From: an uncultured Actinomycetota bacterium
Lineage (GTDB): Bacteria > Actinomycetota > Geothermincolia > Geothermincolales > Geothermincolaceae
Assembly: GCA_964515075.1 (NCBI GenBank)
Contig: CAZETE010000004.1
Location: 3,353 to 67,352, forward strand
Length of the DNA stretch: 64,000 bases
Direction of reading: 5' to 3'
The translations under genes and the position numbers were made by a program. The notes below the pieces were generated by a model, which was given only the letters and a program-made list of their open reading frames with translations, was not told the origin of the DNA and searched no databases. Of this stretch, positions 29,493 to 48,231 are shown piece after piece. Every line of letters begins with the position of its first letter. Position 1 is the first letter of the stretch.

Positions 29493-29828
29493 TCAGACCG
29501 GGGTGATGGTGATGCCCCCGGGCCCGTGGTCGTGATCGTGGTCGTGTTCGTGCGAGTGTGTGTGCGTGTGCGAGTGCGAGTGTGTGTGCGCATGCGTGTG
29601 CCCGTGCATCTGGGCCTCCACCAGCTCGGCGACGGCCGCGCGCACGAGTTCCTCCGCCTCGGCCAGCCCCTTGAGGCCCTCCTGCAGCTTGCCCGCAACG
29701 CCGTCCAGGTCGACGTTGGCGGCCAGGGCCGCCCACTGGCGGAGGTGGTCCTGCTCCAGGCGGACGCGGTCGGCCCCCTGCTTGAGGGATACCTTCAGGG
29801 TGGTGAGATCGATGCCTTCCTTACACAT
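29493..29828 (-). CDS. His-rich putative metallochaperone (helical N-domain plus C-terminal His tail; CooJ/Hpn-like)
   Basis: A 111 aa ORF: MCKEGIDLTTLKVSLKQGADRVRLEQDHLRQWAALAANVDLDGVAGKLQEGLKGLAEAEELVRAAVAELVEAQMHGHTHAHTHSHSHTHTHSHEHDHDHDHGPGGITITPV. It carries 16 His in the last 35 residues. The gene is convergent with the aor-moaD pair. Confidence 0.55.
   Translation of the reverse strand: MCKEGIDLTTLKVSLKQGADRVRLEQDHLRQWAALAANVDLDGVAGKLQEGLKGLAEAEELVRAAVAELVEAQMHGHTHAHTHSHSHTHTHSHEHDHDHDHGPGGITITPV
29527..29608. repeat. GT/GTGC-rich low-complexity microsatellite encoding the His-x tail
   Basis: cgtgatcgtggtcgtgttcgtgcgagtgtgtgtgcgtgtgcgagtgcgagtgtgtgtgcgcatgcgtgtgcccgtgcat. This simple-sequence DNA is prone to slippage. 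Confidence 0.5.
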
Positions 29829-31020: not shown

Positions 31021-31049
31021 TTGACACCCCTTGCCAGGGTGGTAAGATG
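31021..31049 (+). promoter_or_regulatory. near-consensus sigma70 promoter TTGACA-N17-TAAGAT
   Basis: TTGACACCCCTTGCCAGGGTGGTAAGATGG. It would give a ~225 nt leader before the first CrtI-like gene. Confidence 0.45.
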
Positions 31050-31160
31050 GTATTTGTTCGCTAGGTGTCAGGGGGTAATCAGGCGTCTTTTGCGCCGCCG
31101 TATTGCTTCCCAGAAAGCCCAAGGTGCCGAGTAGAAAACGGTGCGCCCGAGCGCAGCGGT

Positions 31161-31186
31161 CCCAAAGGTTCCTTGGGTTTTTCTTT
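31161..31186 (+). terminator. weak hairpin plus U-tract (CCCAAaggttccTTGGG TTTTTCTTT) inside that leader; possible attenuator
   Basis: A 5-bp stem followed by a 9-nt T-rich run. An upstream CCCAAGG at about 31131 could form an alternative pairing. Confidence 0.3.
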
Positions 31187-31281
31187 GTGGACGAAACCCG
31201 GGGAAGCTCATATAATTCATTTGTCCCCGGGCGGGGCGCGCCGCCGGGGGCGCAGGGAGTATCGAGCGCGGGTAACGGGAG

Positions 31282-32685
31282 GTGCAGCCGCTAATGGATC
31301 TCAAGGACAAGCGAGTGGTGGTCATCGGCACGGGCATCGGAGGCTCGGGCGTCGCCGCCCTGCTGGCCAAGGAGGGCGCGAAGGTGCTGGTGCTGGAGCG
31401 CAACGGCTTCTGGGGAGGCAAGGCTGCCAGCTTCGAGCGCGACGGCTTCATCTACGATACCGGGGTGCACTGGGTGGCCCGGGGCGAGAAGGGCCCGCTG
31501 GGCGAGATCAGCCGCGAAGTCGGAGGGAGCCTGCGCTTCAAGGCGCTGGAGCCGGCCATGAAGCTGATGGTGGGGGGGCGCTCCACCCTGCTCACCCAGG
31601 AACTCGGCAAGCCGGAAGAGCTGGACCGCATCCTTTCCGAGCTGGAGGTGGCCGAGGGGGAGCGGGACAAGGCCAAAGGCTTCTTTCTGGACGTGATGCG
31701 GCCGCGCACCGCGGAGGAACTGGCCGCCCTGGAGGAGGTGCCGGCGACGGAGTACCTGAGCCAGTTCACCTCGGACCCTCAGTTCATGGTGTTCGTCTCC
31801 GGCATCATCGGCATGCACCTGACCATCTCCCCCAAGCAGGCCTCCGCCTCGGAGTTCATCTACTGCTTCGAGACCCAGGCGCGCAACCAGAACCTCTCCT
31901 ACCCCATCGGCGGCATTGGGGCCATACCCAAGGACTACCTGGACGCCCTGGAGCGCGCGGGCGGGGAGGTGCGCTACGATACCGAGGTCGCCCGCGTGGT
32001 GGTGGAGGACGGCAGGGCCACGGGCGTGGAGACCGCCGCGGGCGAGATGATCCCGGCGGACGTGGTCATCAGCAACAACGGCATCAAGGAGTCGGTGGAG
32101 CTGGCCGGGCGGCACAACTTCCCCGACGACTACGTGAAGATGGTGGACAACCTGCGCCTCTCGCTGGCCGCCGTCAGCGTCAAGTACGCCCTCGACGCCG
32201 AGGTGGTCAAGACCCACCTCAATTACTACTTCCCCACCCCCGACAAGATGGACAGCCAGACGGGCATCTTCTTCCCGGTGCCCTCGGCCGCCGACCCCGG
32301 CCTGGCGCCCCCCGGCTGCCAGCTGGTGCTGGCCGGCGCCCCGACCTCACCCAACCTGGACGACCCGGTGGCGGCCGACGCCGCCTGCGAGGAGGTCCTG
32401 GACAAGATCGAGGCCACCATGCAGTACCTCTATCCGGACATCGAGGAGCACGTGGTCTGGAAGCTGCGCACCAACACCCGGTACTGCGCCGACATCTCCG
32501 GGCGCAAGACCGGCGAGGTCATCGGGGTGGCCCAGAACCGCTTCCAGGTGGGCGGAAACCGCCCCGGGAACGTGACCCCGCTTCAGGGCTTCTACCTGGT
32601 GGGCTCGGACGTCGGCGGGCGCGGCGTGGGCATGGAGATGGCCGCGGACAGCGCCCTCATCCTCTGGCGCGAGCTCAAGGCCTGA
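31282..32685 (+). CDS. FAD-dependent oxidoreductase, phytoene-desaturase (CrtI/COG1233) family, paralogue 1
   Basis: An N-terminal Rossmann GxGxxG (VVVIGTGIGGSGVAALLAKEGAKVLVLER) and CrtI-family-like architecture over 467 aa. Confidence 0.8.
   Translation: MQPLMDLKDKRVVVIGTGIGGSGVAALLAKEGAKVLVLERNGFWGGKAASFERDGFIYDTGVHWVARGEKGPLGEISREVGGSLRFKALEPAMKLMVGGRSTLLTQELGKPEELDRILSELEVAEGERDKAKGFFLDVMRPRTAEELAALEEVPATEYLSQFTSDPQFMVFVSGIIGMHLTISPKQASASEFIYCFETQARNQNLSYPIGGIGAIPKDYLDALERAGGEVRYDTEVARVVVEDGRATGVETAAGEMIPADVVISNNGIKESVELAGRHNFPDDYVKMVDNLRLSLAAVSVKYALDAEVVKTHLNYYFPTPDKMDSQTGIFFPVPSAADPGLAPPGCQLVLAGAPTSPNLDDPVAADAACEEVLDKIEATMQYLYPDIEEHVVWKLRTNTRYCADISGRKTGEVIGVAQNRFQVGGNRPGNVTPLQGFYLVGSDVGGRGVGMEMAADSALILWRELKA
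32074..32659 (+). repeat. 586-bp tract identical to 33551..34136 (3' part of paralogue 1)
   Basis: I compared the two copies directly. They match without a mismatch from aacaacggcatcaaggag... to ...gacagcgccctca. A further ~128 bp upstream (31893-32020 vs 33370-33497) is near-identical. Confidence 0.85.
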
Positions 32686-32758
32686 CGGCGGAACGGCCGG
32701 AACGGACGTTGCCATCACGGAGCCCGGCCCGGCCGGGCTCCTCTCCTTCAAGGGAGGT

Positions 32759-34162
32759 GTGATCGAGAAGATGGGGCTTGAGGACAAGCGGATCATCGTC
32801 ATCGGCACGGGTATCGGCGGGGCGGGAGTGGCGGCGCTGCTGGCCGGGGAAGGCGCGAAGGTGCTGGTACTGGAGCGCAACGGCTACCCCGGCGGCAAGG
32901 CCGCCAGCTTCCAGCGCGAGGGCTACACCTACGACACCGGGGTGCACTGGGTGGCCCGGGGCGAGAAGGGCCCGCTGGGAGAGATCAGCCGCAAGGTCGG
33001 GGGAAATCTCCGCTTCAGGGTGATGGAGCCGGCCATCTACGTGGACGTGGGCGGAAGGCGCACCTCCATGACGCAGGACATGGACGACGAGGTAATGCTG
33101 GAGAAGGCCTTCGATGACCTGGGGGTCGCGCCCGAGAACCGCGAGGGGGCCAGGGCCTTCTTCCGGGACCTCCTGAAGCCCCGCTCCGAGGAGGAACTGG
33201 GGGAGCTGGACTCCTACCCGGTGTCCGACTACCTCATGCAGTTCACCGACGACCCCCAGTTCTTCGTGCTGATATCCGGGTTTATCGGCATGTACCTGGT
33301 GATCGCCCCCAGGCAGGCCTCCACCGGCGAGTTCATCCTCTGCTACTCGGAACAGATACGCGAGCGCAACCTCTCCTACCCCATCGGCGGTATTGGGGCC
33401 ATACCCAAGGACTACCTGGACGCCCTGGAGCGCGCGGGCGGCGAGGTGCGCTACGATACCGAGGTCGCCCGCGTGGTGGTGGAGGACGGCAGGGCCGCGG
33501 GCGTGGAGCTGGAGTCCGGGGAGGTCATCTCCGGCGACGTCATCATCAGTAACAACGGCATCAAGGAGTCGGTGGAGCTGGCCGGGCGGCACAACTTCCC
33601 CGACGACTACGTGAAGATGGTGGACAACCTGCGCCTCTCGCTGGCCGCCGTCAGCGTCAAGTACGCCCTCGACGCCGAGGTGGTCAAGACCCACCTCAAT
33701 TACTACTTCCCCACCCCCGACAAGATGGACAGCCAGACGGGCATCTTCTTCCCGGTGCCCTCGGCCGCCGACCCCGGCCTGGCGCCCCCCGGCTGCCAGC
33801 TGGTGCTGGCCGGCGCCCCGACCTCACCCAACCTGGACGACCCGGTGGCGGCCGACGCCGCCTGCGAGGAGGTCCTGGACAAGATCGAGGCCACCATGCA
33901 GTACCTCTATCCGGACATCGAGGAGCACGTGGTCTGGAAGCTGCGCACCAACACCCGGTACTGCGCCGACATCTCCGGGCGCAAGACCGGCGAGGTCATC
34001 GGGGTGGCCCAGAACCGCTTCCAGGTGGGCGGAAACCGCCCCGGGAACGTGACCCCGCTTCAGGGCTTCTACCTGGTGGGCTCGGACGTCGGCGGGCGCG
34101 GCGTGGGCATGGAGATGGCCGCGGACAGCGCCCTCAACCTCTGGCGTCACCTGACGAAATAG
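32759..34162 (+). CDS. FAD-dependent oxidoreductase, phytoene-desaturase (CrtI/COG1233) family, paralogue 2 (tandem duplicate)
   Basis: It is the same length as paralogue 1. The N-terminal halves have diverged while the C-terminal ~195 aa are identical to paralogue 1. Confidence 0.8.
   Translation: MIEKMGLEDKRIIVIGTGIGGAGVAALLAGEGAKVLVLERNGYPGGKAASFQREGYTYDTGVHWVARGEKGPLGEISRKVGGNLRFRVMEPAIYVDVGGRRTSMTQDMDDEVMLEKAFDDLGVAPENREGARAFFRDLLKPRSEEELGELDSYPVSDYLMQFTDDPQFFVLISGFIGMYLVIAPRQASTGEFILCYSEQIRERNLSYPIGGIGAIPKDYLDALERAGGEVRYDTEVARVVVEDGRAAGVELESGEVISGDVIISNNGIKESVELAGRHNFPDDYVKMVDNLRLSLAAVSVKYALDAEVVKTHLNYYFPTPDKMDSQTGIFFPVPSAADPGLAPPGCQLVLAGAPTSPNLDDPVAADAACEEVLDKIEATMQYLYPDIEEHVVWKLRTNTRYCADISGRKTGEVIGVAQNRFQVGGNRPGNVTPLQGFYLVGSDVGGRGVGMEMAADSALNLWRHLTK
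33551..34136 (+). repeat. 586-bp tract identical to 32074..32659 (3' part of paralogue 2)
   Basis: See the paired feature. The identical minus-strand 64-aa ORFs in the track (32226..32420 and 33703..33897) reflect the same duplication. Confidence 0.85.
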
Positions 34163-34959
34163 ACCACCAGCAGGGCCGCCGCCAGCGCGATGCGGTAGGC
34201 CACGAAGGGCTTGAGGTCCCTGGCCTTCACCCGGCGCAGCAGGAAGGCGATGGCGAGAATCCCGGTCAGAAAGGACGCGCCCGCGCCCAGGAGCATGGGG
34301 CCGAGGGTGCCCTCGGGCACGCCTTCCCCCACCATCTTCAGGCAGGAGAAGGCAAAGGCCGCCCCGATGGTGGGAACGGAGAGGAGGAAGGCGAACTCCA
34401 CCGCCTCCTCCCGCGTAAGCCCCTGCAGCAGGCCGGCGGAGACCGTCGCGCCCGAACGGGAGACCCCCGGGATCATGGCCAGGACCTGGAAGACCCCGGT
34501 GACCAGGCTGCCCCTCCAGCCCAGGTCCGCGGCCGTGAGCTCGAGCCGGGCGGCGCGGTCGGCCTGCCACAGGACCAGGCTGAAGAGGAACATGGCCAGC
34601 ACGATCAGCAGGGGCATGGCGGCCATCATGTCGGCCGAGTCGGCCGCGAAGGCCCCGACGGCCAGGGCGGGCAGGGCGGCCACGAACAGGTACGACGCCA
34701 TCAAGCGGTCGCGCTCCTCGCCCACCTTCCTCTCCACGAGGATGCGCCAGGCCGCCGCCAGCAGCCTCAGCAGGGCTGTGCGGAAGTAGACGACCACCGC
34801 CAGGAGGGTCCCGGCGTGCAGGGCCAGGTTGAAGGAGAGCCGCGGCTCCCCCCAGCCGGTCAACCAGAGGAGCAGGGCGAAGTGGGCGGAGGAGGAGATG
34901 GGCCAGAACTCGGTGAGCCCCTGTGCCGCCCCCAGCGTCAAGGCCTGGTACCAGGGCAT
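34147..34959 (-). CDS. uppP: undecaprenyl-diphosphatase
   Basis: A 270 aa polytopic membrane protein (MPWYQALTLGAAQGLTEFWPISSSAHF..., ..PGVSRSGAT..). Confidence 0.88.
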   Translation of the reverse strand: MPWYQALTLGAAQGLTEFWPISSSAHFALLLWLTGWGEPRLSFNLALHAGTLLAVVVYFRTALLRLLAAAWRILVERKVGEERDRLMASYLFVAALPALAVGAFAADSADMMAAMPLLIVLAMFLFSLVLWQADRAARLELTAADLGWRGSLVTGVFQVLAMIPGVSRSGATVSAGLLQGLTREEAVEFAFLLSVPTIGAAFAFSCLKMVGEGVPEGTLGPMLLGAGASFLTGILAIAFLLRRVKARDLKPFVAYRIALAAALLVVYFVR

Positions 34960-46298: not shown

Positions 46299-46303
46299 GC
46301 AAT

Positions 46304-47242
46304 TCAAGCGGATGTGCGAGTATCCGCTTTTTCTTTTACATATGCCCTTGCATCGAAACTGAGTCGTATCCTGTAGTGCATGATGGTGACTATTGTCATC
46401 ACTCCGATTTGTGGAATCACAAACATCAGCACAGCAACGGGAATCGACACAACATCCGCCCAAGGATAGACAATCACGAAGGGCAAGCTGATCAGTGCAG
46501 TAATCACACAGACAAGAACAGCATCTTTCTTAAAGCTTATCCGCCTCTCTTTCTTCTTGCGATAGAAATAGTCGGCCAGCGCAACGAGGGAAACGAAGGC
46601 AAGGTAAACTACGACTGCCAATGGATACTCATAAGGCTTAGGCTTATCTAATGATTTGAAATATTCGTCCATTCTTTTATCTTCTTTTTCCAATATATAT
46701 GCCCCAAGACTATCTGCCCAATCAGCCAACTCGTCTTTCCCTTGTTGCTTATAGATTTGACTCAGCAAACCATATCCAGCAGCTTGGCTTGGCTGTCCGT
46801 ATTCAAATGCCAATGCCCTATAAGCAAGGGATTCAGCCTCGTTCAACATCCCATAATCAAGATAGGACATGGCTATAGCAATTAAAGTCGTAAAATCATA
46901 GGGGTTTGCATCAAACGCTTGCTGGAGAATCTCCGATACTCTCTCCCTGTTTCCGATTGAATTGTAGACATCGGCTAGACTTCTATAATCCCAAACAGAG
47001 AAGGACTCCGGGTCAAGCGCATAAGCTTTTTCATAGAGGCTTATAGCTTCTCTTGCCTCTTCTTGGGTAATCGAGTCCAAGCCCTTCTTGGTTATTGAAT
47101 CTGCTTGATCGATCAGCTTCTGTGCTTCGTCTTTCGATTGATCCTGTTGCGCCAATACTCCAACATTTGAGGTGGCCATAGCGGTGCACAGCAAAATAGA
47201 CCCAACGGTCAAGGCCTTCTTCCAAATGCCAAATGCATTCAT
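46304..47242 (-). CDS. secreted/membrane TPR-repeat protein (low-GC, foreign)
   Basis: The start is taken at MNAFGIWKKALTVGSILLCTAMA (signal peptide). It has TPR-like repeats and two C-terminal transmembrane helices. Confidence 0.55.
   Translation of the reverse strand: MNAFGIWKKALTVGSILLCTAMATSNVGVLAQQDQSKDEAQKLIDQADSITKKGLDSITQEEAREAISLYEKAYALDPESFSVWDYRSLADVYNSIGNRERVSEILQQAFDANPYDFTTLIAIAMSYLDYGMLNEAESLAYRALAFEYGQPSQAAGYGLLSQIYKQQGKDELADWADSLGAYILEKEDKRMDEYFKSLDKPKPYEYPLAVVVYLAFVSLVALADYFYRKKKERRISFKKDAVLVCVITALISLPFVIVYPWADVVSIPVAVLMFVIPQIGVMTIVTIMHYRIRLSFDARAYVKEKADTRTSA
46308..46337 (+). terminator. intrinsic terminator GCGGAT-GTGCGAGT-ATCCGC TTTTTCTTTT (for the CAP-domain gene)
   Basis: A 6-bp stem, an 8-nt loop and a 10-nt T-rich run. 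It lies within the 3' end of the convergent TPR gene. Confidence 0.5.
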
Positions 47243-47549
47243 ACTTAGCCTGCTCAGTTTATCGTCCTTTCTTCCCACAAAGCGAATGCCCCCTTTTCGC
47301 AAGTATTCTACCATCCATCAAGCCAGCATTGCTTTTCTACTCATCCCCACCCTCAGCTGGCGATACCCAGTATGGGGATACTGTAATCCTGTTCTGCGTT
47401 CATCAGTCTGGTTCGAACTTCGTCCACAGTGGGGTGCCAAATACAATAGTAAATCAGAGGGTATTACCTTCGTCCTGCTCTTAATGGGCCATGTTCCTTA
47501 TTAATTACCGTGCGATTTGTGTGCTACATGGTCACGCGCAAGGCGAGCC

Positions 47550-47921
47550 TCAGTCGTTTATTGCGTCCAACGCCCGTTGGCGTATCCTGTCTCGCTCTAT
47601 CACGGTGAACATCCCGGTCAAGGTAATGCTCTGCTCTCGAAGTATGCCTGACAAGATCTCTCCGGCTTCGTCCGGAGAAGCCGGAGCGAAGCGGAAGTAG
47701 ACGATGCCGTTGACATTGCGCGCCTTGTGCCGGAAGATCAGCTCTCCGTAATCACGGTCAAAGGTCAGGATGATACGATCCTCTTCGATTGCCCGTTCGA
47801 GCACTTGCCGGTCTGTCGCGCCAGGCATTTCGTCAGCGATACGAAGGACGTCATGACCACTCTCCTCGAGCAGCCTGGTACTTGACCGGGGAATGTTTTC
47901 GTTGGCAAGGAAGTCCATCAC
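47550..47921 (-). CDS. DUF5615 (COG4634) PIN-like putative toxin
   Basis: MMDFLANENIPRSSTRLLEESGHDVL...ILTFDRDYGELIF... is typical of DUF5615. Confidence 0.7.
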   Translation of the reverse strand: MMDFLANENIPRSSTRLLEESGHDVLRIADEMPGATDRQVLERAIEEDRIILTFDRDYGELIFRHKARNVNGIVYFRFAPASPDEAGEILSGILREQSITLTGMFTVIERDRIRQRALDAIND

Positions 47922-48163
47922 ACGGCTTTGGAGTCAAGAGGATAAAGGGATTCCTCACGCATGCATTCGGTCGCGAAGGCGAATATCGCCCGGATGTTCT
48001 CGGCAATAAGATTGGGGTACTCCTCAAGCACCCTGCTTTCCGTCCAGCCCTCGGCGAACAGGCCCAGGATAAATTCGACTGAGAGCCGGGTTCCTTTGAC
48101 CACGGGCTTGCCCATCAATACATCGGGATCAGAGGTAATAGTTTTTCTCCAATCGACTTCCAT
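47918..48163 (-). CDS. DUF433 (COG2442) putative antitoxin
   Basis: ..VLMGKPVVKGTRLSVEFILGLFAEGWTESRVLEEYPNLIAENIRAIFAFA.. Its stop overlaps the DUF5615 start (ATGA). Confidence 0.7.
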   Translation of the reverse strand: MEVDWRKTITSDPDVLMGKPVVKGTRLSVEFILGLFAEGWTESRVLEEYPNLIAENIRAIFAFATECMREESLYPLDSKAV

Positions 48164-48231
48164 CACGACTCCTTCCTTACAGGTATAGCGTACCACAAAG
48201 AAAAGACGGGGTCAGTCCGGGGTCCCGGGGC

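Follow-up and report, generated by a model that had tools for sequence, protein, structure and literature searches.

Probable gene conversion limited to the 3′ half of tandem CrtI-like flavoenzyme genes, and a conserved leader RNA upstream of them, in an uncultured actinomycetotal genome

Gene conversion between paralogues is well established in bacteria, with the tuf genes, the rRNA operons and several long-lasting cases as examples (as outlined in PMC5485169, PMC8022953 and PMC6053082). The closest described parallel to the locus studied here comes from methanogens, where one domain of the mtrA-1/mtrA-2 pair was homogenised by gene conversion in separate lineages and the other remained distinct, in the outline given by Wang et al. 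2015 (PMC4632066). Our locus lies in a 64,000-nt stretch (the window, whose coordinates we use throughout) of an uncultured Actinomycetota bacterium of the Geothermincolaceae (GenBank assembly GCA_964515075.1, contig CAZETE010000004.1, positions 3,353 to 67,352, forward strand). It consists of two plus-strand genes, A (31294..32685; NCBI protein P0001) and its paralogue B (32771..34162; P0121), each encoding a 463-aa FAD-dependent oxidoreductase with a CrtI/PDS-like fold. The two share an exactly identical 3′ tract of 586 nt. We consider, with a probability of about 85%, that A and B are old tandem paralogues in which patch-type gene conversion has acted on the 3′ half and has spared the helical region.

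The likeness to mtrA-1/mtrA-2, as that account presents them, lies in the neighbouring position of the paralogues, in the old duplication, and in the repeated homogenisation of one domain with the other kept distinct. The differences are that the distinct part of mtrA is a newly acquired transmembrane domain and that the process there spans whole orders, while in our case a flavoenzyme keeps an internal helical domain distinct and the process is seen in three or four close genomes, one of them (L001, below) little homogenised. With the tuf and rRNA cases, to the extent that the sources cited describe them, the locus would share RecA-type non-reciprocal transfer between dispersed or tandem repeats, and it shares copies that are more alike within a genome than orthologues are; in those cases whole, equivalent genes are homogenised, whereas here only part of a gene is affected and the copies are clearly not equivalent. 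The locus is thus a well-resolved case of a known phenomenon, domain-limited conversion between paralogues, and not a new kind.

In ungapped register (offset 1477 nt, no indels) A and B are 85.3% identical, with 206 mismatches over 1404 nt, and outside the open reading frames the in-register identity is only 20–40%, that is, no similarity. The longest exact run is the 586-nt tract (32074..32659 in A and 33551..34136 in B, encoding residues 260–455), and the next longest measure 54, 50, 44 and 23 nt. When the 206 mismatches were placed at random 100,000 times no exact run was longer than 117 nt; for a run of 586 nt the analytic chance estimate is ~1e-46. A second block, of 129 nt with 2 mismatches (31891..32019 in A, 33368..33496 in B), encodes residues 200–242. 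The tract and a near-identical block of ~128 bp had both been picked out in an earlier note on this DNA, and the comparison in register bears them out. Tract and block are separated by an unconverted spacer of 54 nt with 18 mismatches (32020..32073 in A, encoding residues 243–258; 33497..33550 in B). Outside the tract and the block the two genes are ~25% divergent.

At the protein level, 66 of the 90 amino-acid differences fall in residues 75–199, which form mostly an all-helical 'helical/membrane-binding' domain (A-specific region, 31516..31890; B-specific region, 32993..33367). Eight more lie in residues 243–258 and 4 in the last 8 residues; residues 200–242 and 259–455 are identical. The earlier note had placed the divergence in the N-terminal halves. 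That divergence is real, and it is concentrated in the helical domain, residues 1–74 with the FAD-binding beta-alpha-beta motif being 82% identical; nor is it limited to the N-terminal half, since the last 8 codons past the tract are again paralogue-specific (32660..32685 in A, ending ...ILWRELKA and a stop, a tail common to A orthologues; 34137..34162 in B, ending ...NLWRHLTK and a stop). The proteins had also been given as 467 aa, a reading that begins at a GTG inside the ribosome-binding site. The ATG codons at 31294 and 32771, each 9–11 nt past a Shine-Dalgarno sequence (GGGAGGTG), are the likelier starts and yield the 463 aa of P0001 and P0121. The 3′ end of B (34147–34162) overlaps by 16 nt the convergent uppP/bacA gene (34147–34959, minus strand), an arrangement that recurs in L010 and in L030, a single-copy relative, both described below.

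The age of the copies could be read from L001 and L002, contigs of metagenome-assembled genomes (MAGs) of a related organism, from bins of sample MFD04716, which carry the same tandem pair, A-type then B-type, in the same neighbourhood. Over alignment columns 200–600 the paralogues are 54–70% identical in all three genomes, while the A genes are 80–90% identical to each other and the B genes 77–93%; the A-specific region of the window gene shows the same 54–70% to B against 80–90% to its A orthologues. Phylogenies by segment had been proposed, and they conflict (bipartition bootstraps, columns 200–600 versus columns 800–1385, pairs of the window, L001 and L002). The region around residues 75–199 groups A with A and B with B, with a bootstrap of 100 for each of the two orthologue clades. 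In the 3′ half the copies group within genomes, with a bootstrap of 100 for window A plus window B and 94 for the L002 pair, and the orthologue clades receive 0%. Sliding identity between paralogues over the 3′ half is 100% in the window, 90–99% in L002 and 73–91% in L001. Over the same 586 nt the difference is 10–16% between orthologues, 18% between the two L001 copies and 5% between the two L002 copies. Since the tract thus diverges normally between genomes, its identity within the window reflects neither constraint nor a young duplication.

We found 96 diagnostic sites fixed differently in A and B of L001 and L002, nearly all in the region of columns 200–600, and the window's two genes have the corresponding state at nearly every one. 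Past the tract, A genes end in ..ILWRELKA or ..ILWRKLKG and B genes in ..NLWR(H/E/Y)L... Because each gene reverts to its own type there, the transfer has two end points and so is a patch, the hallmark of gene conversion. The orthologous pairs in two MAGs, the conflict between segment trees and the normal divergence of the tract between genomes together uphold the earlier proposal of a very recent non-reciprocal recombination. In L002 (8001–10875) both genes are frameshifted, with frame switches within A and within B, and protein P0007 is called as a 375-aa fragment; the frameshifts are probably long-read indel error, and small differences in L002 need care.

More distant relatives whose proteins are 59–74% identical hold a single copy at the same locus. 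In L030/L031 the order is a DapA-like gene (minus strand), the homologue, UppP (minus), ACS (minus) and WYL regulators; in L003 and L011 it is AOR, ThiS, a small open reading frame (ORF), the DapA-like gene (minus) and the homologue. This limits the duplication to the clade that the window genome forms with L001 and L002. A convergent amine-oxidase gene beside the homologue P0006 was considered as a diverged A copy and rejected, as only the FAD motifs match. In residues 75–199 B is nearer than A to every single-copy homologue (65–66% versus 54–58% for the nearest ones), and in residues 1–74 A is nearer than B (~91% versus 81%). The dN/dS ratio over residues 75–199 is 0.83 for the paralogues of the window and 0.51 for those of L001, against 0.23–0.27 for orthologues. 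On these figures A's helical region evolved fast once the genes had duplicated, both versions being conserved today.

Among other explanations, the one that fares best is that both genes exist and that their identical 3′ tract arose in the consensus, by mis-assembly or by multi-mapping polishing. The window is a MAG contig, with P0001 on an NCBI contig of 86 kb, and multi-mapping polishing homogenises paralogues. Existence of the two copies is not in question, an assembly duplication artefact being excluded on that count. Independent, indirect evidence on the tract came from a sister strain in another sample. The 90% cluster of protein B holds a 135-aa fragment from L010, a SPAdes scaffold of 4.3x coverage (ENA ERZ3460579, NODE_31151); an exact look-up of protein A in the assembly indexes gave no match, its cluster has one member, and a second, independent gene A was not recovered from the sister strain. 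L010 begins just before B and over 3.3 kb downstream matches the window at 99.1% identity, covering the B 3′ end, uppP and the ADP-forming acyl-CoA synthetase gene. Inside the tract it is broken by 100 N, and the sequences flanking the gap overlap by 55 nt. The gap looks like a repeat that SPAdes could not resolve, just as the earlier note had anticipated for short-read assemblies, and this trouble at the very same spot speaks for an artefact in the window too.

Against it, the borders of the tract in the window are sharp, with intact, in-frame, paralogue-specific sequence on both sides. The independent L002 assembly is homogenised at 95%, a level too diverged for a polishing artefact, and L010 joins the B tail to a tract 98–99% identical to that of the window. 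Moreover, de Bruijn assemblers break at such repeats; they do not invent 586 identical bases from copies that are ~18% divergent. We regard a consensus artefact as quite unlikely.

A single unequal crossover, in the course of expansion or contraction of a tandem array, could also have left hybrid genes. Unequal exchange between sister chromosomes is favoured by direct repeats at a distance of 1.5 kb, and the outcome can mimic conversion. Yet both genes keep their own sequence on the two sides of the tract, namely the helical region on one side and the 8-codon tail and flanks on the other, and this needs two exchange points. A hybrid made by one crossover is excluded; a multi-step expansion and contraction would work but is less parsimonious, and we find this course of events very improbable.

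The remaining two explanations carry almost no weight. Partial identity of tandem genes is also what a very recent duplication would look like if the 5′ parts had diverged rapidly afterwards, but both types of 5′ region and of tail, A and B, are matched by orthologues in L001 and L002 (bootstrap 100%), so the duplication predates the split of the three genomes, whose orthologues differ by 10–20%, and the synonymous sites of the divergent part are as diverged as they are between genomes; its probability is negligible. Extreme purifying selection or codon constraint with no recombination would draw on the conserved FAD and substrate core with many family-invariant residues that the 3′ half encodes, and it can be dismissed, since the differences found over these same 586 nt between orthologues and between the L001 paralogues are mostly synonymous and are incompatible with 0/586 in the window.

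Gene conversion being the preferred reading, L010 also bears on its direction. Painted against the window, L010 shows the B state at 163 sites between 32775 and 33367, then the A state at 20/20 sites between 33391 and 33550, which makes the spacer of its B gene A-type; 15 private differences follow, clustered at 33689–33751, and the tail is again in the B state. Over this 63-nt cluster L010 encodes KPHF..IFLP, as do the A genes of L001 and L002, while both window genes encode KTHL..IFFP, like the B gene of L001. Positions 1–1226 of L010 are either a true B gene converted by A in that strain or a B-to-A chimera made by the assembler. On either reading the sister strain keeps A-type sequence where the window's A is B-type, which suggests a B-to-A event in the window. 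From these few sites in a low-coverage scaffold, the window event was most likely B-to-A and later than the separation of the strains, whose flanks have diverged by ~1%. Painting the whole 3′ half with A/B-diagnostic sites was tried for the donor direction and rejected, because the pattern is a mosaic and the L001 and L002 pairs have conversion histories of their own; a signal came only from the comparison of the 63-nt cluster with L010.

These observations can be assembled into the following course of events. The duplication would have taken place in the common ancestor of the window genome and the two related MAGs, the more distant relatives being single-copy. Homologous (RecA-type) recombination between direct copies 1477 bp apart, on the same or on sister chromosomes, would then have moved patches repeatedly, with heteroduplex repair copying one allele onto the other. 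The most recent patch would have removed all differences along 586 nt or more, B being the most probable donor and A the recipient, and would span the FAD domain and the substrate-sheet core. The adjoining 129-nt block may belong to the same event or to a slightly older one; the unconverted spacer between them would fit two events or patchy mismatch repair. The tract would not run past the gene on the 3′ side, where there is no further homology, and conversion would stay out of the region of residues 75–199 because its 54–70% identity offers too little homology; both versions of that region would also be under purifying selection. Judging from the aligned genes, conversion appears to recur in this clade, confined to the FAD/substrate-sheet core and sparing the helical domain and the last 8 codons. 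Each conversion would restore long, perfect homology in the 3′ half and ease the next one, which would account for the recurrence in L002 and the window. Perfect repeats should equally favour deletion to a single hybrid with an A 5′ part and a B tail; as both genes persist in three genomes, we infer that both are needed. The outcome would be a pair of enzymes that share their catalytic core, differ in their helical domain and probably act on different substrates or with different partners.

Several points weigh against this account in whole or in part. The exact identity of the tract rests on a single consensus sequence. The donor direction depends on a few diagnostic residues within a single 63-nt stretch, and L010, at its low coverage, could be a B/A chimera of the assembler's making. 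Synonymous divergence, which we tried as a clock and rejected, is uniformly ~0.5–0.6 whatever the relationship, presumably by saturation at a third-position GC content of ~95%, so that relative ages are not readable from it. Gene context across the family is not consistent once close relatives are left behind, and biochemically nothing narrows down the substrate. The attribution of different substrates to the helical domains is an interpretation.

The proteins themselves pass the Pfam gathering threshold for PF01593 (Amino_oxidase; 87.1 and 99.3 bits against 19.8, residues 25–459) and also pass that for NAD_binding_8. No curated NCBIfam family is reached by A or B, every equivalog model scoring far below its cut-off: the best score is for the carotenoid isomerase model TIGR02730 (116–124 bits against 587), and TIGR02734 (crtI_fam) gives 111.2 and 112.8 bits against 238.1. 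The label 'CrtI family' used in the earlier note is accordingly apt at the level of fold and superfamily and too narrow at the level of family. An AlphaFold (AF2) model built on 66 homologues (mean pLDDT 95.6) matched, in Foldseek, CrtD (4rep, TM-score 0.81), plant PDS (5mog, 0.76) and CrtI (4dgk, 0.59), and also 3ka7 and 3nrn (0.72–0.76). Its topology agrees with the description of the CRTI domain in PMC3382138.

As in CrtI, CrtD and plant PDS, there are FAD-binding, substrate-binding and non-conserved helical pseudo-domains, and the N-terminal GxGxxG and C-terminal FAD motifs are invariant; within the family G12, G14, G16, G17, E35 and G437–E448, in the dinucleotide-binding and C-terminal FAD motifs, do not vary. 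In the model, residues 101–198 form six helices that match the CRTI helical domain, the paralogue-specific region comprises this domain and the two preceding sheet strands, and the conversion tract covers the last strand of the FAD domain, the substrate-binding sheet and the C-terminal FAD motif. In enzymes of the CrtI type the non-conserved helical domain forms a lid or membrane face. Unlike CrtI, CrtD and PDS, to which their identity is 16–17%, the window proteins fall below the family cut-offs, have no crtB or crtE nearby and belong to a host lineage of anaerobe type. The LysS encoded in the window is most similar to those of Ca. Solincola (73%) and Ca. Geothermincolales (70%), which puts the host inside or close to the class Geothermincolia. 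The nearest solved sequences are uncharacterised archaeal homologues of phytoene desaturase, PF1083 (3nrn) and a Methanosarcina mazei oxidoreductase (3ka7), with E-values of 5e-21 and 8e-19 and 20–22% identity; the window proteins are bacterial.

No crtB/crtE, cyclase or other carotenoid genes were found within ~15 kb on either side, so that the earlier statement to this effect holds over that distance. The neighbours are of housekeeping and anaerobe type (AOR, ThiS, DapA-like, UppP, ADP-forming acyl-CoA synthetase, GT4, SHMT, KatG and rubrerythrin). Close relatives share the upstream order AOR-ThiS-x-DapA, a deltaproteobacterial homologue adjoins acyl-CoA ligases, and the homologues in L012 and L013 (47–49% identical) adjoin genes encoding a PlsC-type acyltransferase, PorA, a B12-binding radical-SAM protein and a methyltransferase, which hints weakly at lipid modification. 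Gene context was also tried as a guide to function and rejected, since the contexts of homologues did not converge. Hydroxyarchaeol synthase (Has) of Methanosarcina acetivorans is CrtI-like and acts on double bonds of isoprenoid lipids, and is not a carotenoid desaturase (bioRxiv 10.1101/2025.10.20.683597); its likeness to A and B is drawn at the level of a CrtI-like protein, by description. The lipid hydratase activity of Has, an enzyme of an anaerobic archaeon, warns against taking carotenoid chemistry for granted here. Our best guess is that A and B are FAD enzymes whose substrate is hydrophobic, possibly a lipid or an isoprenoid, and that their two helical domains provide two specificities. 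We found no description of this enzyme clade in the literature.

The most novel thing at the locus was unexpected and lies upstream of the genes. The 470-nt gap between the DapA-like gene and A holds a conserved, structured leader RNA of 140 nt (31053..31192, plus strand), far better conserved than the proteins. It is preceded by a promoter-like site found in a consensus scan (31021..31048, plus strand: TTGACA, 16 nt, and TAAGAT with an extended TG), and when the upstream regions of 6 genomes were aligned the sequence around this site, AAATTACCCCCCACCCTATTGACA, was almost invariant; the leader core CCCAAGGTGCCGAGTAGAAAACG at 31118–31140 was invariant. The 23-nt core CCCARGRTGCYGAGTAGAAAACG occurs once per locus in 19 of the 31 loci, always on the plus strand and 110–200 nt upstream of the homologue, even where the proteins are only 52–61% identical.

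RNAalifold, applied to 14 distinct sequences, gave a long-range helix of 15 bp, within which lie the invariant loops GAGUAGAAAA and GGUCCCAAA and also a covarying hairpin of 7 bp. The structure has 22 pairs, with 99% of cells paired and both sides changed in 9 of the pairs; this level of pairing was reached by 0 of 500 shuffles, and slid controls were 30–56% paired. The window RNA folds at -56.6 kcal/mol (z = -3.2). A covariance model recovered exactly one strong copy per locus in 18 loci and in the window (96–155 bits; window 117), none before gene B and none elsewhere in 316 kb. The helix ends in a T-run (31178–31186) flagged as terminator-like, and from the sequence both CCCAAGG and CCCAAAGG are able to pair with CCTTGGG. 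As the ribosome-binding site lies within ~25 nt of the leader's U-run in some loci, the element is more likely a cis-acting leader than a separate small RNA.

Against Rfam 15 the full window had no hit at the gathering score, and neither variant of the leader (from the window and from L003) had a credible one at E≤5; nor did we find in the literature a riboswitch candidate upstream of phytoene-dehydrogenase-like genes. From its conservation and pairing, the leader is a candidate for a new riboswitch or attenuator tied to this enzyme family. That it represents an undescribed riboswitch class sensing the substrate or product of these flavoenzymes, with the duplicates providing two specificities under one sensor, is a possible but doubtful extension of this idea.

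The pair would be transcribed from one promoter through the leader, with a hairpin between the two genes. This hairpin (32719..32741, plus strand; GC-rich, 10 bp) stands in the 85-nt spacer between A and B and is followed by a U/C-rich run and then by B's Shine-Dalgarno sequence; it is retained at the same place in L001 and L002 with different stem sequences. Its role may be to set the ratio of A to B expression, as a partial terminator or by stabilising the mRNA.

Two other features of the window deserve mention. Between the ThiS-like and DapA-like genes a small ORF (29493–29825, minus strand), present at the same place in L003 and L011, encodes a protein with a histidine-rich C-terminal tail, HGHTHAHTHSHSHTHTHSHEHDHDHDHG, and no Pfam match; a metal-handling role linked to the neighbouring AOR of tungsten/molybdenum type is possible. 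At 46300–48200 there is a low-GC island (41–55% against ~70%) with a gene for a TPR membrane protein and an overlapping DUF433/DUF5615 pair that looks like a toxin-antitoxin pair; the island was probably acquired horizontally.

The locus offers a clean, datable example of domain-limited concerted evolution, in which a catalytic core is shared and a specificity-type domain is protected, with tract states that differ among sister strains and related genomes. It breaks short-read assemblies, makes whole-gene trees of this family misleading and, by its 586-bp perfect direct repeats, is prone to deletion. The family to which A and B belong is widespread in uncultured anaerobic Actinomycetota, where its members wrongly suggest carotenoid synthesis. 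The leader RNA, which has no match in Rfam, provides a testable entry point to the biology of this family and, if it is indeed a sensor, would be a handle for finding the metabolite, possibly lipid- or isoprenoid-derived, and hence the function of the enzymes.

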